From a virus (lineage: Duplodnaviria; Caudoviricetes): 57,902 nucleotides of DNA. The first letter of the stretch is position 1. Each line of letters begins with the position of its first letter. A program made the position numbers and the translations under genes. Below, piece after piece: positions 5,313 to 36,881 of this stretch. Location of the stretch: positions 1-57,902 of IMG/VR virus record IMGVR_UViG_3300028370_000001. One strand, given 5' to 3'. The notes under the pieces were generated by a model. It saw only the letters and a program-made list of their open reading frames with translations, was not told the origin of the DNA and did no database searches.

Positions 5313-5390
5313 GTGTTTATTTCTTTCTATGGGAGGGCACTATAAAAGTTAAACTGCCCCCGTGGTTACACAGGGACAGTCAGGTAGTTC

Positions 5391-5879
5391 TTAAGCGAGA
5401 GTGTCGCGGTCTACTTCACTAGCACCTTTGATACCCGTAGCAGTAACATCCATCAACATGGCATACACACGGATAATACCAGACGTATCTGGAGTAGTAC
5501 CAATTAGCAGCATGTCTATAGTGTCTCCAGCGCCAAAGACGACAGGGACAGCAGTGTTAGCCATAACGGAGTATGCGCCAACAGCAGCACCAGTAATAGC
5601 ACCCCCATCGACAAAGGCGTCTACATTACCACCAGTGATACCCAGATCAAAAGTACCAGCGGTACCCCCGGCTGGAGCAGTCTTAATTTCTGTACCCGCG
5701 AAGAGTACAGCGTTACCAGGAGAAACAGTGATAGCCTGGATGATGTCACCCGCAGCAAGGGCAGAACCCTTAGCGGTAGCAGCAGCAGCAAGGTCAATCT
5801 CAACCTCTACAAGGTAAGGCTTGCGGGAGGGGTTACCCTTGCCCCCGACTGCCTTAGCTAGAGTTGTTACGGTAGCCAT
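5391..5879 (-). CDS. Capsid decoration/minor capsid protein
   Basis: Ala/Gly-rich 162 aa directly after the capsid gene; RBS AAGGA. Confidence 0.6.
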   Translation of the reverse strand: MATVTTLAKAVGGKGNPSRKPYLVEVEIDLAAAATAKGSALAAGDIIQAITVSPGNAVLFAGTEIKTAPAGGTAGTFDLGITGGNVDAFVDGGAITGAAVGAYSVMANTAVPVVFGAGDTIDMLLIGTTPDTSGIIRVYAMLMDVTATGIKGASEVDRDTLA

Positions 5880-5969
5880 AAGTTAGTTCCTTTATTGTTG
5901 ACTCTCATAAAGAGAGGTAATCTTTACTCTATCGAGTAATGAAATTACTCATTGTTTTCAGAGACTTAC

Positions 5970-7043
5970 CTATGCGATGTTGTACTTGGCATTCACAAGA
6001 GCTTCTGGGCGCAAGATTTTACGACCATAGAGGTGCATACCACGGACAATGTCAGCAAAGCTGTCTTGGTCACGGTAAGTCTCTGTCTTGTTGATCTGCT
6101 CAGCAGTAGCGACAGCAGAGTCATGTCCGGCAACAATCACACCGTAGTTGGCGTTCTGGTTAGTAGTACCAACAGTACCAGGACCAGTGCCTACATTAGG
6201 CAGGTTGTTAGAGACGTAGACTCGGAAGCCATTCCAGTTGCTCAGAACGAGACCGTTACGAAGAGCACCGGAGTCACCGAAGTCAGCATTGAGGAAACGA
6301 GAATCTTCGTCCATCAGTACTTCCATCATGACTGGGTCGATGACCAACCAACGTCCACCTTTTTCAACGTTCTGTTGGTCCAGCAAGCGACCCATGCGGT
6401 TGATAACCATAACAGGAGAAGCAGTTGCAGTAGGCAGAGCAGTAGCACCAGGCAAACGAGCAGCTACAGGGATGGAGTGATCACCAGCAGAAGCAGTTGT
6501 GATGTTGCCAAAAGAACCCTTAGTCAGCTTCATCGAAGCCAAAAGTTCGTCTGTACCAGCGGTAGAAACAGCTTTGGTACCGTTTACAGTGGTGTTTACT
6601 TCGTCAGCGTTGACGTGGTTAGCAGACTGAGCGTAACCGGAGAGGTAGCCCAAGACTTCTTGGTCGTGGTTATCAGCCAAGCGGTAAGCCGCACGGTTAG
6701 TAGCCAAGTCCATGAAGTTAACGTGGGAGTGAGCAGTCTCAATGTCGTCACACTTGAAGGCAAAATAGTTAGCCTTGTCGATGACCAGAGAGAAGTCCTC
6801 GTCGTCGAGGTCTTGAGCAGCAACCTGTGTGCCGCGCTTGTACTCACTTACAGAAATCTCTGGCTCTTTGATGATACGAACCGTATCGCCTTGAGCAGCG
6901 ATCTCACCGAAGTAGTCAGAGTTGGTTACGTCTCCAACTACTGTAGCCTTACGGAATGCAAGTTGTACTTTCTTTGAGTAAATTACGGAGCTAAAGTTCC
7001 CGTTGGGAAGATTACCATGCCCGCCTGTTGATGGAAAAGCCAT
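5970..7043 (-). CDS. Major capsid protein
   Basis: MAFPSTGGHGNLPNGNFSSVIYSKKVQLAFRK.., C-terminal DIVRGMHLYGRKILRPEAL; ATG 7043 with AAGGA RBS; resembles HMO-2011-type capsids (recall). Confidence 0.9.
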   Translation of the reverse strand: MAFPSTGGHGNLPNGNFSSVIYSKKVQLAFRKATVVGDVTNSDYFGEIAAQGDTVRIIKEPEISVSEYKRGTQVAAQDLDDEDFSLVIDKANYFAFKCDDIETAHSHVNFMDLATNRAAYRLADNHDQEVLGYLSGYAQSANHVNADEVNTTVNGTKAVSTAGTDELLASMKLTKGSFGNITTASAGDHSIPVAARLPGATALPTATASPVMVINRMGRLLDQQNVEKGGRWLVIDPVMMEVLMDEDSRFLNADFGDSGALRNGLVLSNWNGFRVYVSNNLPNVGTGPGTVGTTNQNANYGVIVAGHDSAVATAEQINKTETYRDQDSFADIVRGMHLYGRKILRPEALVNAKYNIA

Positions 7044-7086
7044 ATCATTATCCTTTGTGTTAGGCTTGAATAGCTGTCTGTTTTCC

Positions 7087-7246
7087 AAGAGGCTGACGTT
7101 TTCAGAGGTGTGTCACTTCCCGCTAAGGAGGATCAAGGCTCTTACTTTATCAGGTAGTTCTTCTACTCACGTTTAAGCTTATAGTGTTACGAATGTCGGG
7201 TATCAAGGTGAAGGTGTCAGTTACCTGGGCTTCATTCTCGATACCC
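7087..7246 (-). ncRNA. Structured 5' leader of capsid mRNA (two long hairpins, three GCC/NNACC internal loops)
   Basis: Pairings read directly; GUAA tetraloop and a G-U pair favour the minus-strand RNA. Confidence 0.6.
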
Positions 7247-7249
7247 TTA

Positions 7250-7277
7250 GTTATACTCTAACTCGTTTAAATGTCAA
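7250..7277 (-). promoter_or_regulatory. Sigma70-like promoter for capsid operon
   Basis: TTGACA-N16-TATAAC. Confidence 0.65.
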
Positions 7278-7280
7278 CAG

Positions 7281-8174
7281 TTACTTTGACATATCGTACT
7301 TAAAGTTTCCTGTAGCCATCGCTTCCATGATTGCTTGTTCATTCTTAGCGTACCACTTGTCTGACTCACGGTAAACTTGAGACTCAGAGAACTTCTTACC
7401 GGTTCCTTCAGCATCAATCTTAGGTGTCGTTCCTTTAGACTGTACATCTAAGGCAGCATCCTTGGCGTTCTGCTTCTTAGCAGCGGGCGTAAGGTTGTTA
7501 TCCATCTTGTATAAGTCGATCACACGGATGACAGCCTTGGAGTCGTCTTGGTTGTCATACAGTGCGTTCTTAATCCAGTCTGATTGCTCATCAACCCAGT
7601 CATGGAAAGAGTCAGCTTCCTTCAGGGTATCGAAGTCAGAGTGAGCCTTACGTATTTCAATCTCTGCCTTACTACGTTTAGTCTCGTAGTTGAGGTCATC
7701 AAGTTCTTTAAACCGAGAGTCAGTCTGCTCAAACATTTCCTTAGCTTTACGCTGGGCAATAGTCTCAACGATACCAGCAATGTCAGGATACTTTGAGGCC
7801 CAAGCTTCAATGTCTTCGTCTGACTTAGGAGGAGCAATACCTTTAGCACCACCTTCCTTTAGAGCATTGAGTTCAGCTTTGTGTTTAGCTTCTTGTTCCT
7901 GTTGGTAACGACGTAGATCACCATAACGCTTCTTGAAGGTAGATTCCTCTTTAGAGAGTTTAGTCTCCTCTTTGGTGTCCTCTACTTTTACCTCGGGGGT
8001 TTCTGCCCCTTCCTCAATAACTTCTTCCTCAGTACTGTCTTCTTTACCTTCGGACTTCATGAGTTCTTCAAGTTCTTTCTCGTCAGCTTCCATACGTTTA
8101 CGATTGCTTCGGTTGTCATACCGAGGGTTAATCATTACGGACTTAGCTTGCTCGCGTACCATTTCGTTAGCCAT
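7281..8174 (-). CDS. Capsid scaffolding protein
   Basis: Acidic coiled-coil 297 aa just upstream of capsid; FKKRYGDLRR motif; RBS GGAG. Confidence 0.75.
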   Translation of the reverse strand: MANEMVREQAKSVMINPRYDNRSNRKRMEADEKELEELMKSEGKEDSTEEEVIEEGAETPEVKVEDTKEETKLSKEESTFKKRYGDLRRYQQEQEAKHKAELNALKEGGAKGIAPPKSDEDIEAWASKYPDIAGIVETIAQRKAKEMFEQTDSRFKELDDLNYETKRSKAEIEIRKAHSDFDTLKEADSFHDWVDEQSDWIKNALYDNQDDSKAVIRVIDLYKMDNNLTPAAKKQNAKDAALDVQSKGTTPKIDAEGTGKKFSESQVYRESDKWYAKNEQAIMEAMATGNFKYDMSK

Positions 8175-8229
8175 TTGTAGTTCTCCAGTTGGGGCCGCTT
8201 ATAGCGGGTTGCCATTAAGTTGTTGTAGT

Positions 8230-10764
8230 TTACTTCTTGTTTGTTCGTTTACTTACAAGACCACCTTTGTTACGTCCTTGTGGCCGTGCCCGTGGTCTTG
8301 CTGATGTGGTCGGGGCGTTAGCTGTAACTCCTGCTGCATCTGCTGCCCTATTGTTTCTGGCTATACGGTCGTTTCGCTGACCAGCGTCCTCACTGCTGCT
8401 CCCCATATCAAATTGAACTGTGTCCCCTTGAGAAGGTCTTCCACTGTCACCACCAGCCTTAACGTCGTAAACAGGATTAGACCTAGAAAAGGTTCCTACT
8501 CCTTGGCTGTTGGTGTAAGGAGCTGTCCTTTGACCCGTAGTTCGCCTTGCGTTTACGTTGAGTGACTCCATATAATTCTCGAAGATACCCTCGCCGTCAG
8601 ATATGTCTTTTGAAAGCCTACCCGCAAGACCGAAGTTTCCTCGTGCTTCGTCAGCCATAGCCATCAAACGATCAGAAGACTCTTGGTCACCAATCTGTGA
8701 GTAGTACCGAGCAGCAGCACTCACTTCAGCAATGTCACGCATCCCTACAGCTGCCCTAGCAGCCCCACCTAGGAGACCACCTACTGCCGTTATACCTCGG
8801 TTAGCAAATCTGTCCTTTAGTTTGTCTTCAGCCCATGTCGAAACAGACTCAGTGTCTGTAAAGTCTAGGGTACCAAGGGGATTACCAAAGGCACCCGGCC
8901 CTTCTCCTGAACCAGCACTGATTCCTCTAGTACCCCTAGCATCTCCAGGAGTATTTCTTTCACGACTGCTACCGGTGTTACTAACTGCATTTTGAACTAC
9001 TAAAGGTGTCTCAGAGAAACCAGCTGGGATAGCCTGAGCAGGCTCACCGTTTATAAAGAGAATCATCTGACTAGTTCCACCGGGACCAAAGTATTCCTTG
9101 TAGGTGTAAGCAGAAGAACGCATAAGCTGATCCGCTAGACCAGGAGTATTCCAAGAGGCAGGGTTAAACGTCGGTTGGTTTACAAGACCACCCTCAGCCA
9201 TCATAGGGAGTTCCTCTGTTACGAGGGGTCCTTGTGTCTCCATGGTGTCATCTACAGGTTCACCCCCTACACGCCCATCTTGCTCCATGTCCAGCATACC
9301 CTGCTTAGCCTTAGTACGAAGCTTCTCAAAGAAGTTCACCCCAAAGAACTTTAGGACATCAGCAGGAATAACATACTCACCTTCAGACAACATCGCAGGG
9401 ATATCATCTCTTACATTCTCAGGTGTAGAGCCAGGGGGTACTTCGTTTCCACTAACAGGGTCACGTTCTACAGGACCACCTGCAGCCATAGTCTTAGGGT
9501 TTTTACTATAGTCCACTTTAATTCCTTTAGGTGTTGTGTTGACCTCTGCTAGCTTCTCAGTACCGGAGATGTCTACACTGTTATCCTCTGCAAACTGTCT
9601 CTCAAACTCGAGCGTACTCATCTTGTGCTTACCCACAAACTCTACCTCAGTCATCTTACCAGCAGAAGCTAAGAAGTAATCACTCATAGCATTCTTAGAG
9701 ACTAGACCTCCTTCTGCGTAGCCTTCAGGGCTAGACACAAGACCTCCGTTAGAAAAAGATATGTCTGGTGAAGCAGAGCTGTAAGTCCCAGCAGGACCTT
9801 GCATAGTAGACTTAATTGTGTCAGGATTAAAAATAACCACTTCGTTAATACCTTTTGATGGGGAGAAGGATTGTATCCCTTGAAAACCCTCTTCTTCAAG
9901 AATCGGTCTTAGGACGTTTTGTCCCCACCCCGTGTTTTTCCCTTGGCTATCTTTGAACAGGTCACTTACACTTACGTTTCGACCTTCTTCTAAACTTTCT
10001 AGTACCTCTGTTAAGTGAGGAGTCATGCTCTCTGTAGGAACCTCACTAAGGGATGACATAACTTTGCTTCGCACAACGTCGTCTAACAGTGCCTCATCTG
10101 TGAAAACCTCAGCTACATTTGTGTATACAGGAAACACTTGGCCGCCCATCTTCGCATCCGAAGGGTCAGTAAACCCTCTGTTTAAACTCATAGCATAATC
10201 AGAGGCATCTTTAGAGGAGTCTGTAAGGTACACCCCAGCTCCATAGTCTCCTGTGCTAGAAGGAGAAAGGTTAACTCCTTCAAAGTTTCTGGTGTCTCCT
10301 CTTAGAGTACCAGACATACCATGGTACAAAGGTGTCTGTTCATCTCCTATTTTAAAAAAAGAACCCTCCCCCCACGCTTCTAGTCCACTCGTTTCTGGGC
10401 GAATACGGATGTTACCTCCGAGAGAACCTAGGGCATTAGGGTCTACCTCTACACGTTTAAATCTCTCTACTGCTTCCCGTGCTCCTTTACTAATAAGTTT
10501 AGAAGCTGCATCACCCACTCCAGGAATAAGACCCACGACAGTAGCTCCGCCTAAAGCCCCAACAAGCCACCAGTTTGGGTCTTCTTTTTGTGTCTCTTCG
10601 TAGACCTCTTTTGCAGCCATAGCGTCACCGAGGATAGGTGTCATCTCAGCAATAAATTTAGCAGCCCCCTTTAGGGTGGGGCCACTGGTGTTTGGTCCCT
10701 GCTCTACCCGTCCTCTGTTTCTGTTTTGGATTCTAGGGCTAACCAAGTTTTTATCTTCATCCAT
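8230..10764 (-). CDS. Multidomain (polyvalent-like) virion protein with putative ADP-ribosyltransferase-like domain
   Basis: LYHG..GAGVYLT..GQVFPVY..EVVIFNPDTIKS; DDIPAMLSEGEYV; five xxxGG(L/P)V motifs. Confidence 0.55.
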   Translation of the reverse strand: MDEDKNLVSPRIQNRNRGRVEQGPNTSGPTLKGAAKFIAEMTPILGDAMAAKEVYEETQKEDPNWWLVGALGGATVVGLIPGVGDAASKLISKGAREAVERFKRVEVDPNALGSLGGNIRIRPETSGLEAWGEGSFFKIGDEQTPLYHGMSGTLRGDTRNFEGVNLSPSSTGDYGAGVYLTDSSKDASDYAMSLNRGFTDPSDAKMGGQVFPVYTNVAEVFTDEALLDDVVRSKVMSSLSEVPTESMTPHLTEVLESLEEGRNVSVSDLFKDSQGKNTGWGQNVLRPILEEEGFQGIQSFSPSKGINEVVIFNPDTIKSTMQGPAGTYSSASPDISFSNGGLVSSPEGYAEGGLVSKNAMSDYFLASAGKMTEVEFVGKHKMSTLEFERQFAEDNSVDISGTEKLAEVNTTPKGIKVDYSKNPKTMAAGGPVERDPVSGNEVPPGSTPENVRDDIPAMLSEGEYVIPADVLKFFGVNFFEKLRTKAKQGMLDMEQDGRVGGEPVDDTMETQGPLVTEELPMMAEGGLVNQPTFNPASWNTPGLADQLMRSSAYTYKEYFGPGGTSQMILFINGEPAQAIPAGFSETPLVVQNAVSNTGSSRERNTPGDARGTRGISAGSGEGPGAFGNPLGTLDFTDTESVSTWAEDKLKDRFANRGITAVGGLLGGAARAAVGMRDIAEVSAAARYYSQIGDQESSDRLMAMADEARGNFGLAGRLSKDISDGEGIFENYMESLNVNARRTTGQRTAPYTNSQGVGTFSRSNPVYDVKAGGDSGRPSQGDTVQFDMGSSSEDAGQRNDRIARNNRAADAAGVTANAPTTSARPRARPQGRNKGGLVSKRTNKK

Positions 10765-10945
10765 TGACTTGCTCCCTTAGTTGCTTCAACCTACGTAAGG
10801 CATCTATCGCCCCTTGTGCCCTGTAGACATCCTCAATAAGAGTAGACTTTTCCAACTTACTTTGAGTCTGTCTAATACGGGAATCAAGCTCTCTTAGAAA
10901 ATCATCATACAGTAACTTGTCGTTAACAAAAGGTTTTAGGTTCAT
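10757..10945 (-). CDS. Small protein after portal
   Basis: 62 aa, YRAQGAIDALRRL; overlaps both neighbours' start/stop. Confidence 0.65.
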   Translation of the reverse strand: MNLKPFVNDKLLYDDFLRELDSRIRQTQSKLEKSTLIEDVYRAQGAIDALRRLKQLREQVNG

Positions 10946-13032
10946 TGTTCAGCACCCTCCCCTGTGTTGCCTGAGAACCCAGGGGTACCTGGGGCTGGCA
11001 CAGCGCCTGTACCAACGTTACCCCCACCAGCTCCGGTAGGGTCCATAGGGGCAGACCCCTCAGGGCCACCAGGACCCCCTTGTGGAGCCTGTGGTGCTGC
11101 TTGTGGGTTGGCTGCTTGGAACGTCTTAAGCATCTCAGCCTGTACAGCCGCACGTTGCATAGAGTTTGTTACTTTATCAGGATCAAGATCGAGAGACTTA
11201 GCAATCTCACGGATGATGTAATCCAACTTAGCAAAAGGTGCAAGCACAGGGTTCTGTACAAGACCAAGCAACTGCATCAAACGCTGGCTACGTACTTCGT
11301 TAGCCATGAGTGAAGAAGTACCAGCAGCTTTAACCTCAAGATCACCCTGAATCTCTGGGTCAAAGTCAAACTGCATGTTGAAGGAGAAGAGAGCTTTACC
11401 GAGAGGACCAAGCAGGTAGTCGTCGAAGTTCTGGACCACGGTACGGATACCGCCGTTAGCAGCAGACATCAACATAGAGATACCTGAGGCTGTACGACCA
11501 ACACCAGAAATACCCGTCTGCCCGTGAGCAAACGAAGGGAAGCCAGTAGACTCATCAGAGAGCTGACGGGCTTTATCGAACATTTGCATGTTCTCGTTAG
11601 ATACGTTAGGGAACTTGGTCCCAAAGATAGCCTGCCCTGGGGCACCAGCCTGACGCCTAAACACTTTACCAGGGTACACCTTTAGGTCTTGACCTGGTGT
11701 CAAAGCAGACTCGTCTATCTCAATAAGCAGGTTGCCTGAGAGAGCAGCATTGTCCACAGCCATACGCATGAAGCCGTTCATCAATGTCTGAGTGTCGTCC
11801 ATGTTTTCTGCAAGACCTACACCCCAAAGGCTGTAAGGGTTCATCTCGTAAGGGACAGCGTAGTAGGGGATGATCGCAGGAGTAAACGGGTTAACGACAA
11901 GACGAAGGACACGTCCATGACATACCCAGATGTTTACGTTAACTTCGTCTACATCGTCAAGGTTGTCAGGGATATCTACATCGTGGTCTTCTAGGATTTC
12001 ACGATCAATGTTACCCCAGAACTCTAAGACTTCGTAACGTTCAGTACGGGAGTCTTGAGCGTCGTCGTCCATGACCTGCTCCCAGTCTTCCTTGATATAG
12101 TTGGGACCCCACTCTAGTGCAAGAGCAATCTCTTCTTTACGAAAGTAAGGACGTTTGTTCAGACCACGTAGCTTAGGGCCTGACATCTTATGACGTTCAA
12201 CGAACCATTCAGCTTCATCCATGTTTGCGGCGTCTGGGTCAGGGTAGCCGTTCCAGATGGATACGTGGGAGACCTTAGGGACAGTCTTGATCAGAGGCTT
12301 GTAGTTGCCCTCCTCATCCCACTTAGGATACTCTTTGTTCTCTGTAAACGGACCCTTCATCAAACCTGTACCAAAGAGGGCACACTCGAAAGCAGCAGCC
12401 CGCAGGTGCTTCTTAGCACGAGACTCCTCTAGTTGGTCGTGAATTTTCTTCTCCATCTTCTTAGCTGCAATCTCTGCAGGATGAAATGTAACCTGAGTAG
12501 GAGATGTACCTGGGCCAGCTTTGAGTTTGTCCTTAATAGGATCAAGCTCGTCACTCATACTACCTAGGCGACGTAGGAAGTCATCGGTGGTCTCACCAGG
12601 ATTTACCTTAGGGTACTCAAACTCTTTCTCAGCTGTGGCCACCTCATCGTTAGTCTCAAGGTGGACTGTGTCCTCTACTCCATCAGGAAGAGTAGTAGGG
12701 TCAATGGTCAAAGGGAACCTAGCGGAGCCAAGCAAGACATCAGTAATCTGACCATAGGCTGCTGTCACCTTGGTCTTAGTTACTTTAACGAATACCTTAG
12801 ACTTCTCTGTTTCTAAGAACTGTACTTCAGGGCCGTAGAGGCCACGATAGTTCCTGTAAGCCCTGAGCCAACGGTGCTCCTCGGTTTCACGAGCAGTAGA
12901 AGCTTTGCTAAACCGTTCTTGTACGTAGAGAGCAATAGTGCCTGAAGGGTTATCTGTCTCGTCTTCTTCTTCACGGTCATCCAGGGCAGTCATGTCTTCC
13001 TGATCCATGTTGTTCTCGAAGTCGTCTTCCAT
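10942..13032 (-). CDS. Portal protein
   Basis: 696 aa after terminase; TASGISML-type motif, Pro/Gly-rich tail. Confidence 0.85.
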   Translation of the reverse strand: MEDDFENNMDQEDMTALDDREEEDETDNPSGTIALYVQERFSKASTARETEEHRWLRAYRNYRGLYGPEVQFLETEKSKVFVKVTKTKVTAAYGQITDVLLGSARFPLTIDPTTLPDGVEDTVHLETNDEVATAEKEFEYPKVNPGETTDDFLRRLGSMSDELDPIKDKLKAGPGTSPTQVTFHPAEIAAKKMEKKIHDQLEESRAKKHLRAAAFECALFGTGLMKGPFTENKEYPKWDEEGNYKPLIKTVPKVSHVSIWNGYPDPDAANMDEAEWFVERHKMSGPKLRGLNKRPYFRKEEIALALEWGPNYIKEDWEQVMDDDAQDSRTERYEVLEFWGNIDREILEDHDVDIPDNLDDVDEVNVNIWVCHGRVLRLVVNPFTPAIIPYYAVPYEMNPYSLWGVGLAENMDDTQTLMNGFMRMAVDNAALSGNLLIEIDESALTPGQDLKVYPGKVFRRQAGAPGQAIFGTKFPNVSNENMQMFDKARQLSDESTGFPSFAHGQTGISGVGRTASGISMLMSAANGGIRTVVQNFDDYLLGPLGKALFSFNMQFDFDPEIQGDLEVKAAGTSSLMANEVRSQRLMQLLGLVQNPVLAPFAKLDYIIREIAKSLDLDPDKVTNSMQRAAVQAEMLKTFQAANPQAAPQAPQGGPGGPEGSAPMDPTGAGGGNVGTGAVPAPGTPGFSGNTGEGAEQ

Positions 13033-18892: not shown

Positions 18893-18920
18893 GTTATATT
18901 TATTTAGGGACACTTGTCAA
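18893..18920 (-). promoter_or_regulatory. Sigma70-like late promoter
   Basis: TTGACA-N16-TATAAC, same geometry as capsid promoter. Confidence 0.6.
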
Positions 18921-29991: not shown

Positions 29992-30020
29992 TTGACTTTA
30001 TAACAGTCTTACTGTATAAC
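29992..30020 (+). promoter_or_regulatory. Sigma70-like promoter
   Basis: TTGACT-N17-TATAAC. Confidence 0.6.
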
Positions 30021-34668: not shown

Positions 34669-36881
34669 ATGACCCTAGTAGTAGTCTCGGATTGCGAAAC
34701 AGATGGGCTAGACCCTGACAACCTGTGGTGTGTGGTCAATAAAGAACTTGGAGCTAAGTCCTACAAAACGTGGGACTTCAACTCAGGGTATGAAACCTTC
34801 ATTGACTACGCAAAGACAGTAGACCGCTGGGTATTCCACAACGGTATAAGCTATGATGGTCCCGTGATAAACAAACTACTCGGGTCCACCGTGATTGATC
34901 CCTTTAAAATCTGTGATACTTTTGTTGTGTCCCGCCTTGTTAACTACATGGGGTACAACGGTCACGGACTAGATGAGATCGGTATCTCCCTTGGGCAGCC
35001 TAAGACAGTCTTCAATGACTGGGAGAAGTACACACCAGAGATGTTGTCCTACTGTAAGGATGACGTAGACCTAGGCACAAAGATATACAATAAGTACAAG
35101 AAGTATATCGACGACCCTGCTTGGGCTATGTCTATGGAGACTGAGCACCGGATGGCTATGTTGTGTAAGAAGATGCACGACAATGGTTTCAAGTTCAACC
35201 TTCAGTTAGCTAACGAAGTCCTACCTCAGATACAAGACAGACTTGACGAACTTAGCGCAGGGATGCAACGTGCTTTCCCACCTGAGCTTAAGGAGGTTCA
35301 CCGTATCCAGTACCGTACTAAGGCAGACGGTGAGCTCTACGCTACCACAGCTAACGCTATGGATAACTTCCCTAAGACTGTGATCGACGGTGATGAGCTG
35401 GTGTGTTTCGATTGGGTATCGTTTAACCCTGGGTCACACCTGGATCGTATCGATAAACTCTGGGATGCAGGGTGGAGCCCTACTGAGAAGTCTAAGGCAC
35501 ACTATAAGTTCTCTCAACGGGGTGCAGTAGGTGACAAGTGGGGTAAGAAAGTCCTTACTCAGGAGACGTATGACGCTAAGAAGGAAGAGTTCGAACACTA
35601 CGGCTGGACGGTAAGCGATGAGAACCTTGAGACACTCCCAAGCACAGCCCCTCAGGGTGCTCGTGACCTTGCTGAGTGGTTGTGCCTCAACGGTAGACTA
35701 AAGCCACTAGAGGAGCGTATCAGGGAGTGTGAGAGGGACGGACGTATCCGCACTAACTTCTGGCATATCGGGGCATGGACCCACCGTATGTCCCACTCGT
35801 CTCCTAACCTAGCTAATATCTCCTCACCATTTCAGGGGGAAGTAGTCACTGCTGTTGACCTTGTTAAGGAGAGGTTCGACGGTCAACTACGTGCTATGTT
35901 TACAGTGGACGAAGGCAACTGGCTAGTAGGTACAGACGCTGAGTCTATCCAGCTACGTATCCTAGCTCACTACCTAAAGAACGACGAGTACGTTAAGGCT
36001 ATCACTGAAGGGAGGAAAGAAGATGGAACAGATATCCACAACGTTAACCGTGCAGCACTCGGACTTGAGCACCTTACTCGGGACCACGCCAAAACTTTTA
36101 TCTTAAAGCTAGGATAACTTAGGGGTAACCCTTCGATTAAAACCTCGTGAACTCAGGGGAGGCCTCTAGTAGGTAATCCTGAGCCAAGCTAAGTAAACAA
36201 AAAGCTATTGATTACTTAGAAGGTGCAACGACTATCGAAAGCACATCGAAAGATGGAAGTTAGTAGAGTACACCCAAGTGGGTGGAAGCGCGAGGCTCCT
36301 GCTGTAAGCAGGATGATGATATAGTCTAGTCTATGCGGCGACGTGTAGCAGTTCATAAGAGAACGGGCTGAGCTTAACGAACTCAGTTGAATAAAAACGA
36401 TGCTTGGCTACTCGGAGCAGGAAACGGCAAGGTCGCTAGAATCTTGGGCTGTACAACACGACAGGCGAAGGGGGCGGTGGATTCTTTCGTTGACCGTACC
36501 AAGGGACTTGGGAAACTTAAATCAGGACTTATCCGTAGGGATGCAGCCCGAGGTTTCTTTGAAGGTTTCGACGGTAGAAAAGTTATCTGTCCCTCAGAGT
36601 ACTTAATGTTAGCAGGTTATCTGCAGAATGGAGAGGCTGTAATCATGAAGAGAGCCAACTGGCTATGGGACAAGTGGTGCACAGAGGATGGCTTGAACTT
36701 CAAGCAAGTCAATCTTGTTCACGATGAATTTCAAACAGAAGTTTGTGGGACGTATGAAGAGGCAGAAAGAGTAGGTTACCTGCAGTGTAAATCTCTTGTA
36801 GCTACAGGAGAAGAACTCGGATTGTTTTGCCCCATGTCTGGTGAGACACGTATAGGGAGGTCTTGGCTTGAAACCCACTGA
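34669..36881 (+). CDS. polA: DNA polymerase family A, spliced (exons 34669-36103 and 36400-36881; 638 aa)
   Basis: Exo DCETDGL; motif A DAESIQLR; motif B KTFI-Y-AWLLGAG restored by splicing; motif C VHDE. Confidence 0.93.
36104..36399 (+). ncRNA. Group I intron without ORF (296 nt)
   Basis: 5' exon ends in U, intron ends in G; P1 TTATCT/GGATAA; core AACTCAGGG/AATCCTGAG; P7 GACTA/TAGTC. Confidence 0.92.

Follow-up and report, generated by a model that had tools for sequence, protein, structure and literature searches.

IMGVR_UViG_3300028370_000001 is a complete virus record (57,902 bp, with direct repeats at its termini) that we refer to in its entirety as the window. The leaders of two of its head genes share an RNA internal loop in which CC on the short strand faces a long strand of 3 to 5 nt. 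It is nearly certain that this CC/(N)NAC loop is a real structured RNA element. Its fixed bases are the short-strand CC and the AC at the 3' end of the long strand, the flanking helices are free in sequence, and the fact that the invariant columns are the loop bases while the stems covary indicates a selected RNA module. The module is linked to the scaffold gene, adjoining its Shine-Dalgarno sequence (SD), and further copies precede the major capsid protein gene; it is probably a cis-regulatory leader element and a putative protein operator. DNA and protein matches put the window among the HMO-2011-type podophages, with Puniceispirillum phage HMO-2011, Roseobacter phages CRP-1, CRP-9 and CRP-13, and others. 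A preliminary description of the window had reported four minus-strand copies of the motif, and all four were found where it had placed them. The elements and genes concerned are the following.

8187-8216, minus strand: scaffold-leader hairpin with one copy, UGG-CAAC-CCGC(UAUAA)GCGG-CC-CCA (UGG 8214-8212, CAAC 8211-8208, CC 8194-8193, CCA 8192-8190); its 3' end lies 3 nt before the SD.
8183-8186, minus strand: scaffold SD, GGAG (8186-8183), with the scaffold ATG at 8174.
7281-8174, minus strand: putative scaffolding protein gene, 297 aa, 3' of the single motif copy; phrog_13678 (unknown function).
7198-7246, minus strand: capsid-leader hairpin 1, UGAAG-CC-CAG(GUAA)CUG-ACAC-CUUCA on a 10-bp base stem; CC 7229-7228, ACAC 7217-7214.
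7085-7164, minus strand: capsid-leader domain HP2, two nested copies facing opposite ways (hairpin 2, 7162-7087, in the preliminary description).
7154-7158 (long strand) and 7091-7092 (partner CC), minus strand: outer copy of HP2, AAGA-ACUAC-CUGA / UCAG-CC-UCUU.
7108-7110 (long strand CAC) and 7137-7138 (partner CC), minus strand: inner copy of HP2, AGAG-CC / CAC-CUCU.
7063-7067, minus strand: conserved AAGCC box, 3' of HP2 and 5' of the capsid SD, consensus AAAGCCAAAUAUCA-GGAGGA in 59 leaders.
7051-7055, minus strand: capsid SD, AAGGA (7055-7051), with the capsid ATG at 7043-7041.
5970-7043, minus strand: major capsid protein gene of the P22-coat type, 3' of the structured leader; phrog_267 major head protein, E 1e-64.

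The 297-aa product is labelled a scaffolding protein because of its position, its charged, all-alpha structural model and the presence of homologues at the equivalent position in other phages, and it is on these grounds that we infer its function.

Four copies in a single genome are not evidence by themselves, since each strand carries about 66 chance matches to the loose motif (CC opposite NNAC, 3+3 bp): a scan of the window gave 67 matches on the plus strand and 66 on the minus strand, and a looser one gave 468 and 499 on the two strands. Folding adds unevenly to this. Hairpin 1, with about 18 bp in total, has the proposed fold as its minimum free energy (MFE) structure when folded alone (z score -5.1), and the MFE structure of the scaffold hairpin alone, with 3+4-5 bp, reproduces the motif at -7.8 kcal/mol (z -1.35). 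HP2 alone shows no unusual stability (z 0.02), its outer AAGA/UCUU stem being absent from the MFE structure, and the folding stability of the whole leaders is ordinary (z -0.75 and 0.09). The evidence that the motif is real therefore comes from relatives.

For this comparison, 80 IMG/VR loci were fetched via the capsid protein (78-89% identity). Open reading frames (ORFs) were called in 73 sources to locate scaffold leaders, of which 55 distinct ones were kept (alignment A2), leaving out L006, L037 and L046 (bad ORFs), six loci with less than 100 nt upstream, duplicates, and L013 and L031 (miscalled starts); L numbers denote individual loci. All 55 leaders carry (A/U)(G/A)G-C(U/A/C/G)AC-stem-loop-stem-CC-C(C/U)A at 10-20 nt 5' of the SD. 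In A2, 99.7% of the cells of this hairpin are paired, six of its seven pairs are changed on both sides, and its covariation score is 0.404 versus 0.173 in shuffled alignments (0/500 as high), slid controls reaching at most 0.108. A set of 46 hairpins from three clades gave 99.1% pairing and a covariation of 0.753 versus 0.233. The outer pair switches from G-C to A-U in two sequences of A2 and in five of the three-clade set, a change that fits a CC internal loop better than a bulge. A model of single hairpins (R2) matched the window once, at 27.4 bits (E 1e-7; next best 11.2 bits), and had one match each in 66 of the 85 capsid-anchored sources. Eighteen of the 19 misses are explained by the capsid match starting at position 1,223 or less, since the site needs about 1,150-1,280 nt of upstream DNA; the remaining one, L003, has a double form of the hairpin (by eye).

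The capsid leader, a structured stretch of about 200 nt, consists of hairpin 1 followed by the two-motif HP2. Among 81 leaders, 76 were distinct, and alignment A1 comprises the window and the 58 distinct ones that do not exceed 240 nt; the 17 longer leaders were omitted. Its consensus starts, 5' to 3', with TATAAC-TA, followed by hairpin 1, with a variable lower stem and AAAG-CC-UC(loop)GA-CUAC-CUUU, and then by AAAGUCUAAAC. HP2 reads AAGA-(N)CUAC-CUG..AAGUA-UAGG-CC-C[variable apex]G-CAC-CCUA-GAAAA..CAG-CC-UCUU, and 3' of it come GUUUAGCUU and then AAGCCAAAUAUCA-GGAGGA-AUG. For the 32-pair structure drawn on A1, 88.2% of cells are paired versus 78.7% in shuffles, 23 of the 32 pairs show compensatory changes on both sides, and the covariation score is 0.293 versus 0.131 shuffled (0/500 as high; slid controls at most 0.101). 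In hairpin 1 (59 leaders), all six motif-flanking pairs are compensatory and the long-strand AC never varies. Around HP2 lies a long-range helix, AAAGUCUAAAC/GUUUAGCUUU, which is 80.6% paired, mostly conserved rather than covarying, and weak in the clade of the window.

HP2 itself is recognized by a second model (R1), which has a sole match in the window (53 bits, E 4e-13; next best 12.9 bits) and one copy upstream of the capsid gene in 86 of 88 sources, missing L042 and L085. Pairing in the R1 alignment extends to 96.9% of cells, with compensatory changes at 11 of 13 pairs. The outer copy, which in the window has a 5-nt long strand, keeps A10 and C11 (the AC) and G72, C73 and C74 (the partner CC with the preceding G) invariant in 60 sequences (alignment A4). 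In the inner copy, CC and CAC are conserved and the adjoining pair is C-G in 52 and U-A in 7 sequences of A1, or C-G in 73 and U-A in 6 of the R1 alignment. R1 and R2 each have only the one match in the window, and a motif scan near its gene starts gave no further convincing copy.

These comparisons bear out the preliminary proposal that the flanking stems differ yet stay paired, for the scaffold hairpin, hairpin 1 and HP2 alike, and the covariation and conservation on which it had staked the motif are present in the leaders of relatives (6/7, 23/32 and 11/13 pairs compensatory). They also correct its description of the loop as G-CC opposite NNAC-C: CC and AC are indeed fixed, but the closing pair covaries in relatives (C-G 32, U-A 19, U-G 4). 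The inner copy of HP2, which had been read with the same loop as the others, is in fact CC opposite CAC (2x3), its adjoining C-G/U-A pair covarying.

Where copies are nested, as in the double scaffold leaders, in HP2 and in its counterpart in phage phiM6, they face each other, so that each strand reads 5'-C(U)AC-helix-CC-3' with dyad symmetry. The helix between the facing copies measures 5-7 bp in double scaffold leaders and about 12 positions in HP2, where it includes an AGUA/GAA, loop-E-like stretch; the apex of HP2 is variable. The loop E or sarcin-ricin (bulged-G) consensus has AGUA opposite GAA beside a helix, and most leaders read ..AAGUA-(U/C)AGG..CCUA-GAAAA.., the clade of HMO-2011, CRP-1 and L064 being different.

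Several further observations concern the capsid leader. In the freshwater relative MW202701.1 (L086), an HNH endonuclease gene (1755-2324) lies inside the leader between hairpin 1 and HP2, with its stop codon falling in the 5' strand of HP2; the linker thus tolerates a 570-nt insertion. The annotated capsid start of CRP-9 (L002), at 2291, falls within the conserved AUCAUGGAGGA box of the SD region and has probably been placed too early, because the aligned start in relatives lies about 15 nt downstream. The variable apex of HP2 often has a palindromic loop (GGCC, GCGC or GAUC; e.g., L018 2466-2557). In the clade of the window (window 7113-7135) the apex contains GAUCCUCCUUA, which resembles the 3' end of 16S rRNA; kissing-loop or anti-SD functions of the apex are conceivable. 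Just before a terminator-like hairpin (5381-5352), an 11-mer of the HP2 5' strand, GAACUACCUGA, is found again (5381-5391, minus strand), possibly by chance (about 0.03 expected).

The capsid leader appears to have a promoter of its own.

7250-7277, minus strand: promoter-like TTGACA (7277-7272)-N16-TATAAC (7255-7250), just past the scaffold stop codon.

With TTGACA and a TATAAT-like hexamer within the 16-18 nt spacing, this sequence is of the sigma-70 type, and we infer from it that the predicted promoter would start the capsid transcript. A generic promoter scan overlooked it because position 6 of the hexamer is C. The window contains two exact TTGACA-N-TATAAC matches versus 0.00 expected, and TTGAC-N15-19-TA.AA., with a variable spacer, lies upstream of the capsid gene in 81 of 85 sources, the misses being L025, L050 and L061, which have less than 140 nt of upstream DNA, and L035. 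The scaffold-capsid spacer is 226-328 nt in all four named relatives, and the stems of hairpin 1 start just 3-7 nt past the TATAAC hexamer. Other TTGAC(A/T)-N-TATAAC-TAGG promoters, both with short, unstructured leaders, occur at 18893-18920 on the minus strand, where one heads the minus-strand late block, and at 29992-30020 on the plus strand, where a variant lies within the plus-strand block. Promoters of this phage may generally bear the TATAAC-TA-GG signature.

Beyond the close relatives, the motif is present in many aquatic and soil phages and stays with the scaffold gene family even where protein identity drops to 17-27%. A tblastn search with the scaffold protein retrieved 24 phage records, including Pelagibacter, Sinorhizobium, Rhizobium, Pseudoalteromonas and Aeromonas phages, with the following arrangements.

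HTVC115P: scaffold leader GG-CUAC-UUUGC(AAUAC)GCAAA-CC-CC and a second upstream hairpin (by eye); capsid spacer 58 nt, with no copy on reading.
phiM6, RHph_N3_13, CRP-3 and MW202701: double nested form in the scaffold leader; capsid leader with dyad two-copy domains, and in CRP-3 also hairpin 1 (by eye).
Aeromonas phage 1233 (25% identity): UAG-ACAC-CGUACA(UCC)UGUACG-CC-CUA-GAGGAAAC..AUG (by eye); capsid spacer 16 nt.
Slicky01: scaffold homologue with no motif upstream; capsid spacer 19 nt.

The capsid spacers of Slicky01 and Aeromonas phage 1233 are too short for a copy. R2 matches 45 of 50 IMG/VR loci fetched via a pelagiphage scaffold; three of the misses (L149, L152, L165) have no upstream DNA, and six loci (L144-L148 and L160) carry two tandem copies. 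On loci fetched via the Aeromonas-phage scaffold R2 gave no matches, being blind to these hairpins because their loops are long. A script scan suited to the Aeromonas type, which required 3+3 bp and a short strand of CC or AC no more than 25 nt away from the start codon, found the motif in 13 of 21 loci versus 8.9% of shuffles. The form in these loci, CUAG-(N)NAC-UCU..AGA-CC-(C)UAG-AAGGAG, has its 3' arm abutting the SD. In a stricter scan, 27 of 48 distinct upstream regions were positive versus 7.3% of shuffles.

Copies in the capsid leader are present in every examined lineage with a long capsid leader, and only in those: the HMO-2011 type, CRP and Rhizobium/Sinorhizobium phages. HMO-2011 and CRP types have three (hairpin 1 and the two-copy domain), preceded by the TTGACA/TATAAC promoter, and the two-copy domain is seen by eye in Rhizobium and Sinorhizobium phages. 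In pelagiphage and Aeromonas types the capsid gene has no copies and the motif is confined to the scaffold leader.

What might such a module do? The reading that we favor, at a probability of about 0.45, is that the loops are recognition sites of one trans-acting protein that would couple scaffold and capsid output, with unassembled scaffold as the putative binder. Four findings fit this: the invariant loop bases stand beside covarying stems, the site adjoins the scaffold SD, the motif tracks the scaffold family, and copies precede the capsid gene only in those lineages examined in which it has a long leader of its own. A protein bound beside the scaffold SD would reduce scaffold translation or shorten the lifetime of the scaffold mRNA, and binding in the capsid leader would tie capsid output to the same signal, keeping the head proteins in ratio. 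That the module serves as a protein operator, whatever the protein, seems to us about an even bet.

Free scaffold is the leading candidate binder because of the analogy with P22 autoregulation and because of a conserved basic block, but as an identification this is tentative and rather unlikely to be correct. The structural model is all-alpha, with helices at 75-109 and 130-177 (35 and 48 residues) and a mean predicted local distance difference test (pLDDT) score of 79.9. The basic block, KKRY-DLRR in the window, lies at the start of a long helix; among 54 scaffold homologues R83, Y84 and D86 are invariant and K81, K82 and L87 at least 90% conserved, R88 and R89 being invariant only among 8 close relatives. 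The nested copies, which read alike on both strands, suit a dimeric binder. A full version of the mechanism, in which unassembled scaffold dimers would bind the dyad sites via the KKRY-DLRR helix, stop their own translation and tune the capsid mRNA, thereby setting the scaffold:coat ratio, is doubtful. A search of the window scaffold protein against Pfam returned no family.

The precedent comes from P22, whose scaffolding protein gene was reportedly shown to be autoregulated by Casjens & Adams (1985) and Wyckoff & Casjens (1985). The P22 scaffold is described as "autogenously regulated" in PMC5529062, an account that, in the part available to us, names no RNA target. Like P22, the window has a head module with a P22-type coat and a scaffold, and the feedback proposed here would likewise be post-transcriptional and exerted by unassembled scaffold. 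Unlike the window, P22 has a 13-nt portal-scaffold spacer and an overlapping scaffold-coat junction.

A number of points weigh against a scaffold-responsive operator. The capsid copies lie 60-190 nt from the SD, which makes a simple occlusion model insufficient, and the occurrence of the same loop bases in alpha- and gamma-proteobacterial phages would also fit a universal host partner. Inspection by eye found no CC/NNAC hairpin in P22, and neither inspection nor R2 found the motif upstream of the scaffold homologue of Slicky01; L150 and L151, of the pelagiphage type, are likewise true R2 misses. As to the protein, the scaffold has no relative among PDB sequences, its model gave no Foldseek match at E<=0.001 and no known RNA-binding fold, and the basic block might just as well make contact with the capsid or the portal. 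The HP2 alignment (A5) was fitted to its own model, and R2 with its alignment (A6) was built on 46 hand-picked single hairpins, double and long-loop forms being excluded. Finally, the sequencing runs listed for this phage are of lake and salt-lake DNA, with no RNA run among them. Separately, an SD-sequestering role for CCUCU was dropped, since the scaffold copy reads CC-CCAA.

The partner could instead be a universal one of the host, such as the 30S subunit or a conserved RNA-binding protein (a ribosomal protein, for instance). The module would then be a translation enhancer or standby site that boosts the two most abundant head proteins rather than a feedback operator. Identical loop bases in phages of SAR116, Roseobacter, Pelagibacter, Rhizobium and Aeromonas hosts, while scaffold identity drops to 17-27%, would fit this, as would the very high expression that scaffold and capsid both need and the rRNA-like AGUA/GAA stretch of HP2. 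We nevertheless consider it fairly unlikely: R1 and R2 find no copy before other highly expressed late genes of the window, the motif is tied to one gene family and not to expression level, and Rfam holds no rRNA or ribosomal protein leader family that matches.

An architectural role that involves no protein would have C-loop-like loops set the helix twist of a compact, nuclease-resistant 5' cap, giving a longer mRNA life with the SD left free. Hairpin 1, very stable (z -5.1) and only 3-7 nt after TATAAC, and the long-range helix AAAGUCUAAAC/GUUUAGCUUU around HP2 (80.6% paired) would fit such a cap, and the available text of PMC4551918 describes C-loops as architectural. The same text has the short-strand insertions of C-loops bulging out and numbering 0 to 2, for which an invariant CC is unexpected. 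Moreover, the scaffold leader forms a weak hairpin (-7.8 kcal/mol, z -1.35) inside a polycistronic message, and a need for stability would not by itself account for the retention of one and the same loop in two leaders and across many lineages. This role is, in our estimate, quite unlikely.

The copies do sit at boundaries between low- and high-demand genes (portal/844-aa gene to scaffold, scaffold to capsid), where cleavage by a host or phage endoribonuclease might free the scaffold and capsid mRNAs from the low-copy portal mRNA, with hairpins protecting the resulting ends. Internal-loop hairpins are used as processing sites by T7. Processing is nonetheless improbable here: RNase III requires about two helical turns, which the scaffold hairpin with 3+4-5 bp falls short of, this enzyme is not known to need fixed loop bases, and the capsid leader already has its own predicted promoter. 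Least probable is that the RNA, in the manner of put or nut sites, modifies RNA polymerase so that it reads through late terminators: hairpins 1 and 2 directly follow a predicted promoter, as do the paired stem-loops of HK022 put-type antiterminator RNA, and a terminator-like hairpin lies downstream at 5381-5352, but the scaffold copies have no promoter pattern in front, abut the SD and are the sole copy type in pelagiphage and Aeromonas types, and the two other TATAAC promoters of the window have short, unstructured leaders.

If the favored coupling of scaffold and capsid output through one protein is correct, it has parallels among known operators. The MS2 coat/replicase hairpin and the T4 RegA sites are translational operators at or beside the ribosome binding site, where a structural or abundant phage protein acts as repressor, and in ribosomal protein leader operators and CsrA-type leaders several short recognition elements in the 5' leader set the stoichiometry of assembly partners. 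The gp32 pseudoknot of T4, through which a phage protein represses translation, is another RNA element of this kind, according to the part of PMC10690425 at hand. Unlike the gp32, MS2 and RegA operators, the present module is common to two genes, occurs up to three times per leader and has a dyad arrangement; unlike ribosomal protein leaders, it is phage-borne and has no match to an Rfam family of such leaders.

The label "C-loop-type" in the preliminary description is compatible with the motif in part. The motif is an asymmetric internal loop with covarying flanking helices, but its long-strand length and fixed bases mostly differ. A C-loop is further defined by two non-Watson-Crick pairs across its strands, which form base triples. 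C-loops, as far as the consulted portions of two papers go, have a longer strand that often starts with C, and some are protein recognition sites (PMC9516175); they have three core long-strand bases and 0-2 inserted short-strand bases (PMC4551918). The inner copy of HP2, CAC/CC, fits the 3-nt long strand of C-loops such as that of 16S h15 or the viroid C-loop bound by VIRP1. Most copies, in contrast, have a long strand of 4-5 nt (CUAC in most relatives; CAAC, ACAC and ACUAC in the window), and the fixed bases are the last two (AC) and not the first, with an invariant CC on the short strand.

The preliminary description had recognized no named family, and a search of Rfam 15 agrees, giving no match to the leaders. 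At E<=10, region 6500-8800 returned two unrelated weak matches, both outside the leaders, and at gathering thresholds the whole window returned a group I intron and nothing else. Fremin et al. 2023 (PMC10690425) extracted 8,495 candidate structured RNAs from IMG/VR, five of them upstream of a major capsid protein family; the article text contains no scaffold-linked or HMO-2011 motif ("scaffold" and "HMO" have 0 occurrences), overlap with its supplementary models being possible. Among papers on HMO-2011, none on RNA elements was found, judged by title and abstract.

Scaffold autoregulation was recognized in P22 in the 1980s, and this RNA family, absent from Rfam, offers a sharply defined and widely conserved candidate operator for such regulation. 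HMO-2011-type phages and pelagiphages, which rank among the most abundant marine phage groups, carry the element, and the distinction between loop bases and stems provides ready mutational predictions. These could be taken to the bench, because the element is also found in phages of culturable hosts (Sinorhizobium phiM6, Rhizobium RHph_N3_13 and Aeromonas phage 1233). If the proposal is right, one RNA-protein switch would set the scaffold:coat ratio in a lineage that spans pelagiphages, HMO-2011-type phages, Rhizobium phages and Aeromonas phages, and the compact dyad RNA module may serve as half of a protein-RNA pair.

The two leaders belong to a head-gene block on the minus strand that also includes the following.

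10942-13032, minus strand: portal gene.
8230-10764, minus strand: 844-aa gene, between portal and scaffold.

The 844-aa gene has a sub-threshold match to ART-PolyVal (ADP-ribosyltransferase of polyvalent proteins), at 26.8 bits versus a cut-off of 31.2, and the HMO-2011 homologue of the capsid protein carries the annotation Pfam PF11651 P22 coat. Upstream of a 162-aa gene that follows the capsid gene, an element at 5884-5925 on the minus strand, AAGA-UUAC-CUCUC(UUUAU)GAGAG-UC, resembles the motif in its long strand and stem; it has UC in place of CC and no outer helix, and may be a decayed copy or chance. The group I intron (Rfam RF00028, 83.8 bits, E 7e-20) lies at 36094-36348 on the plus strand, between ORFs 34669-36117 and 36387-36881, and probably interrupts a replication-module gene.

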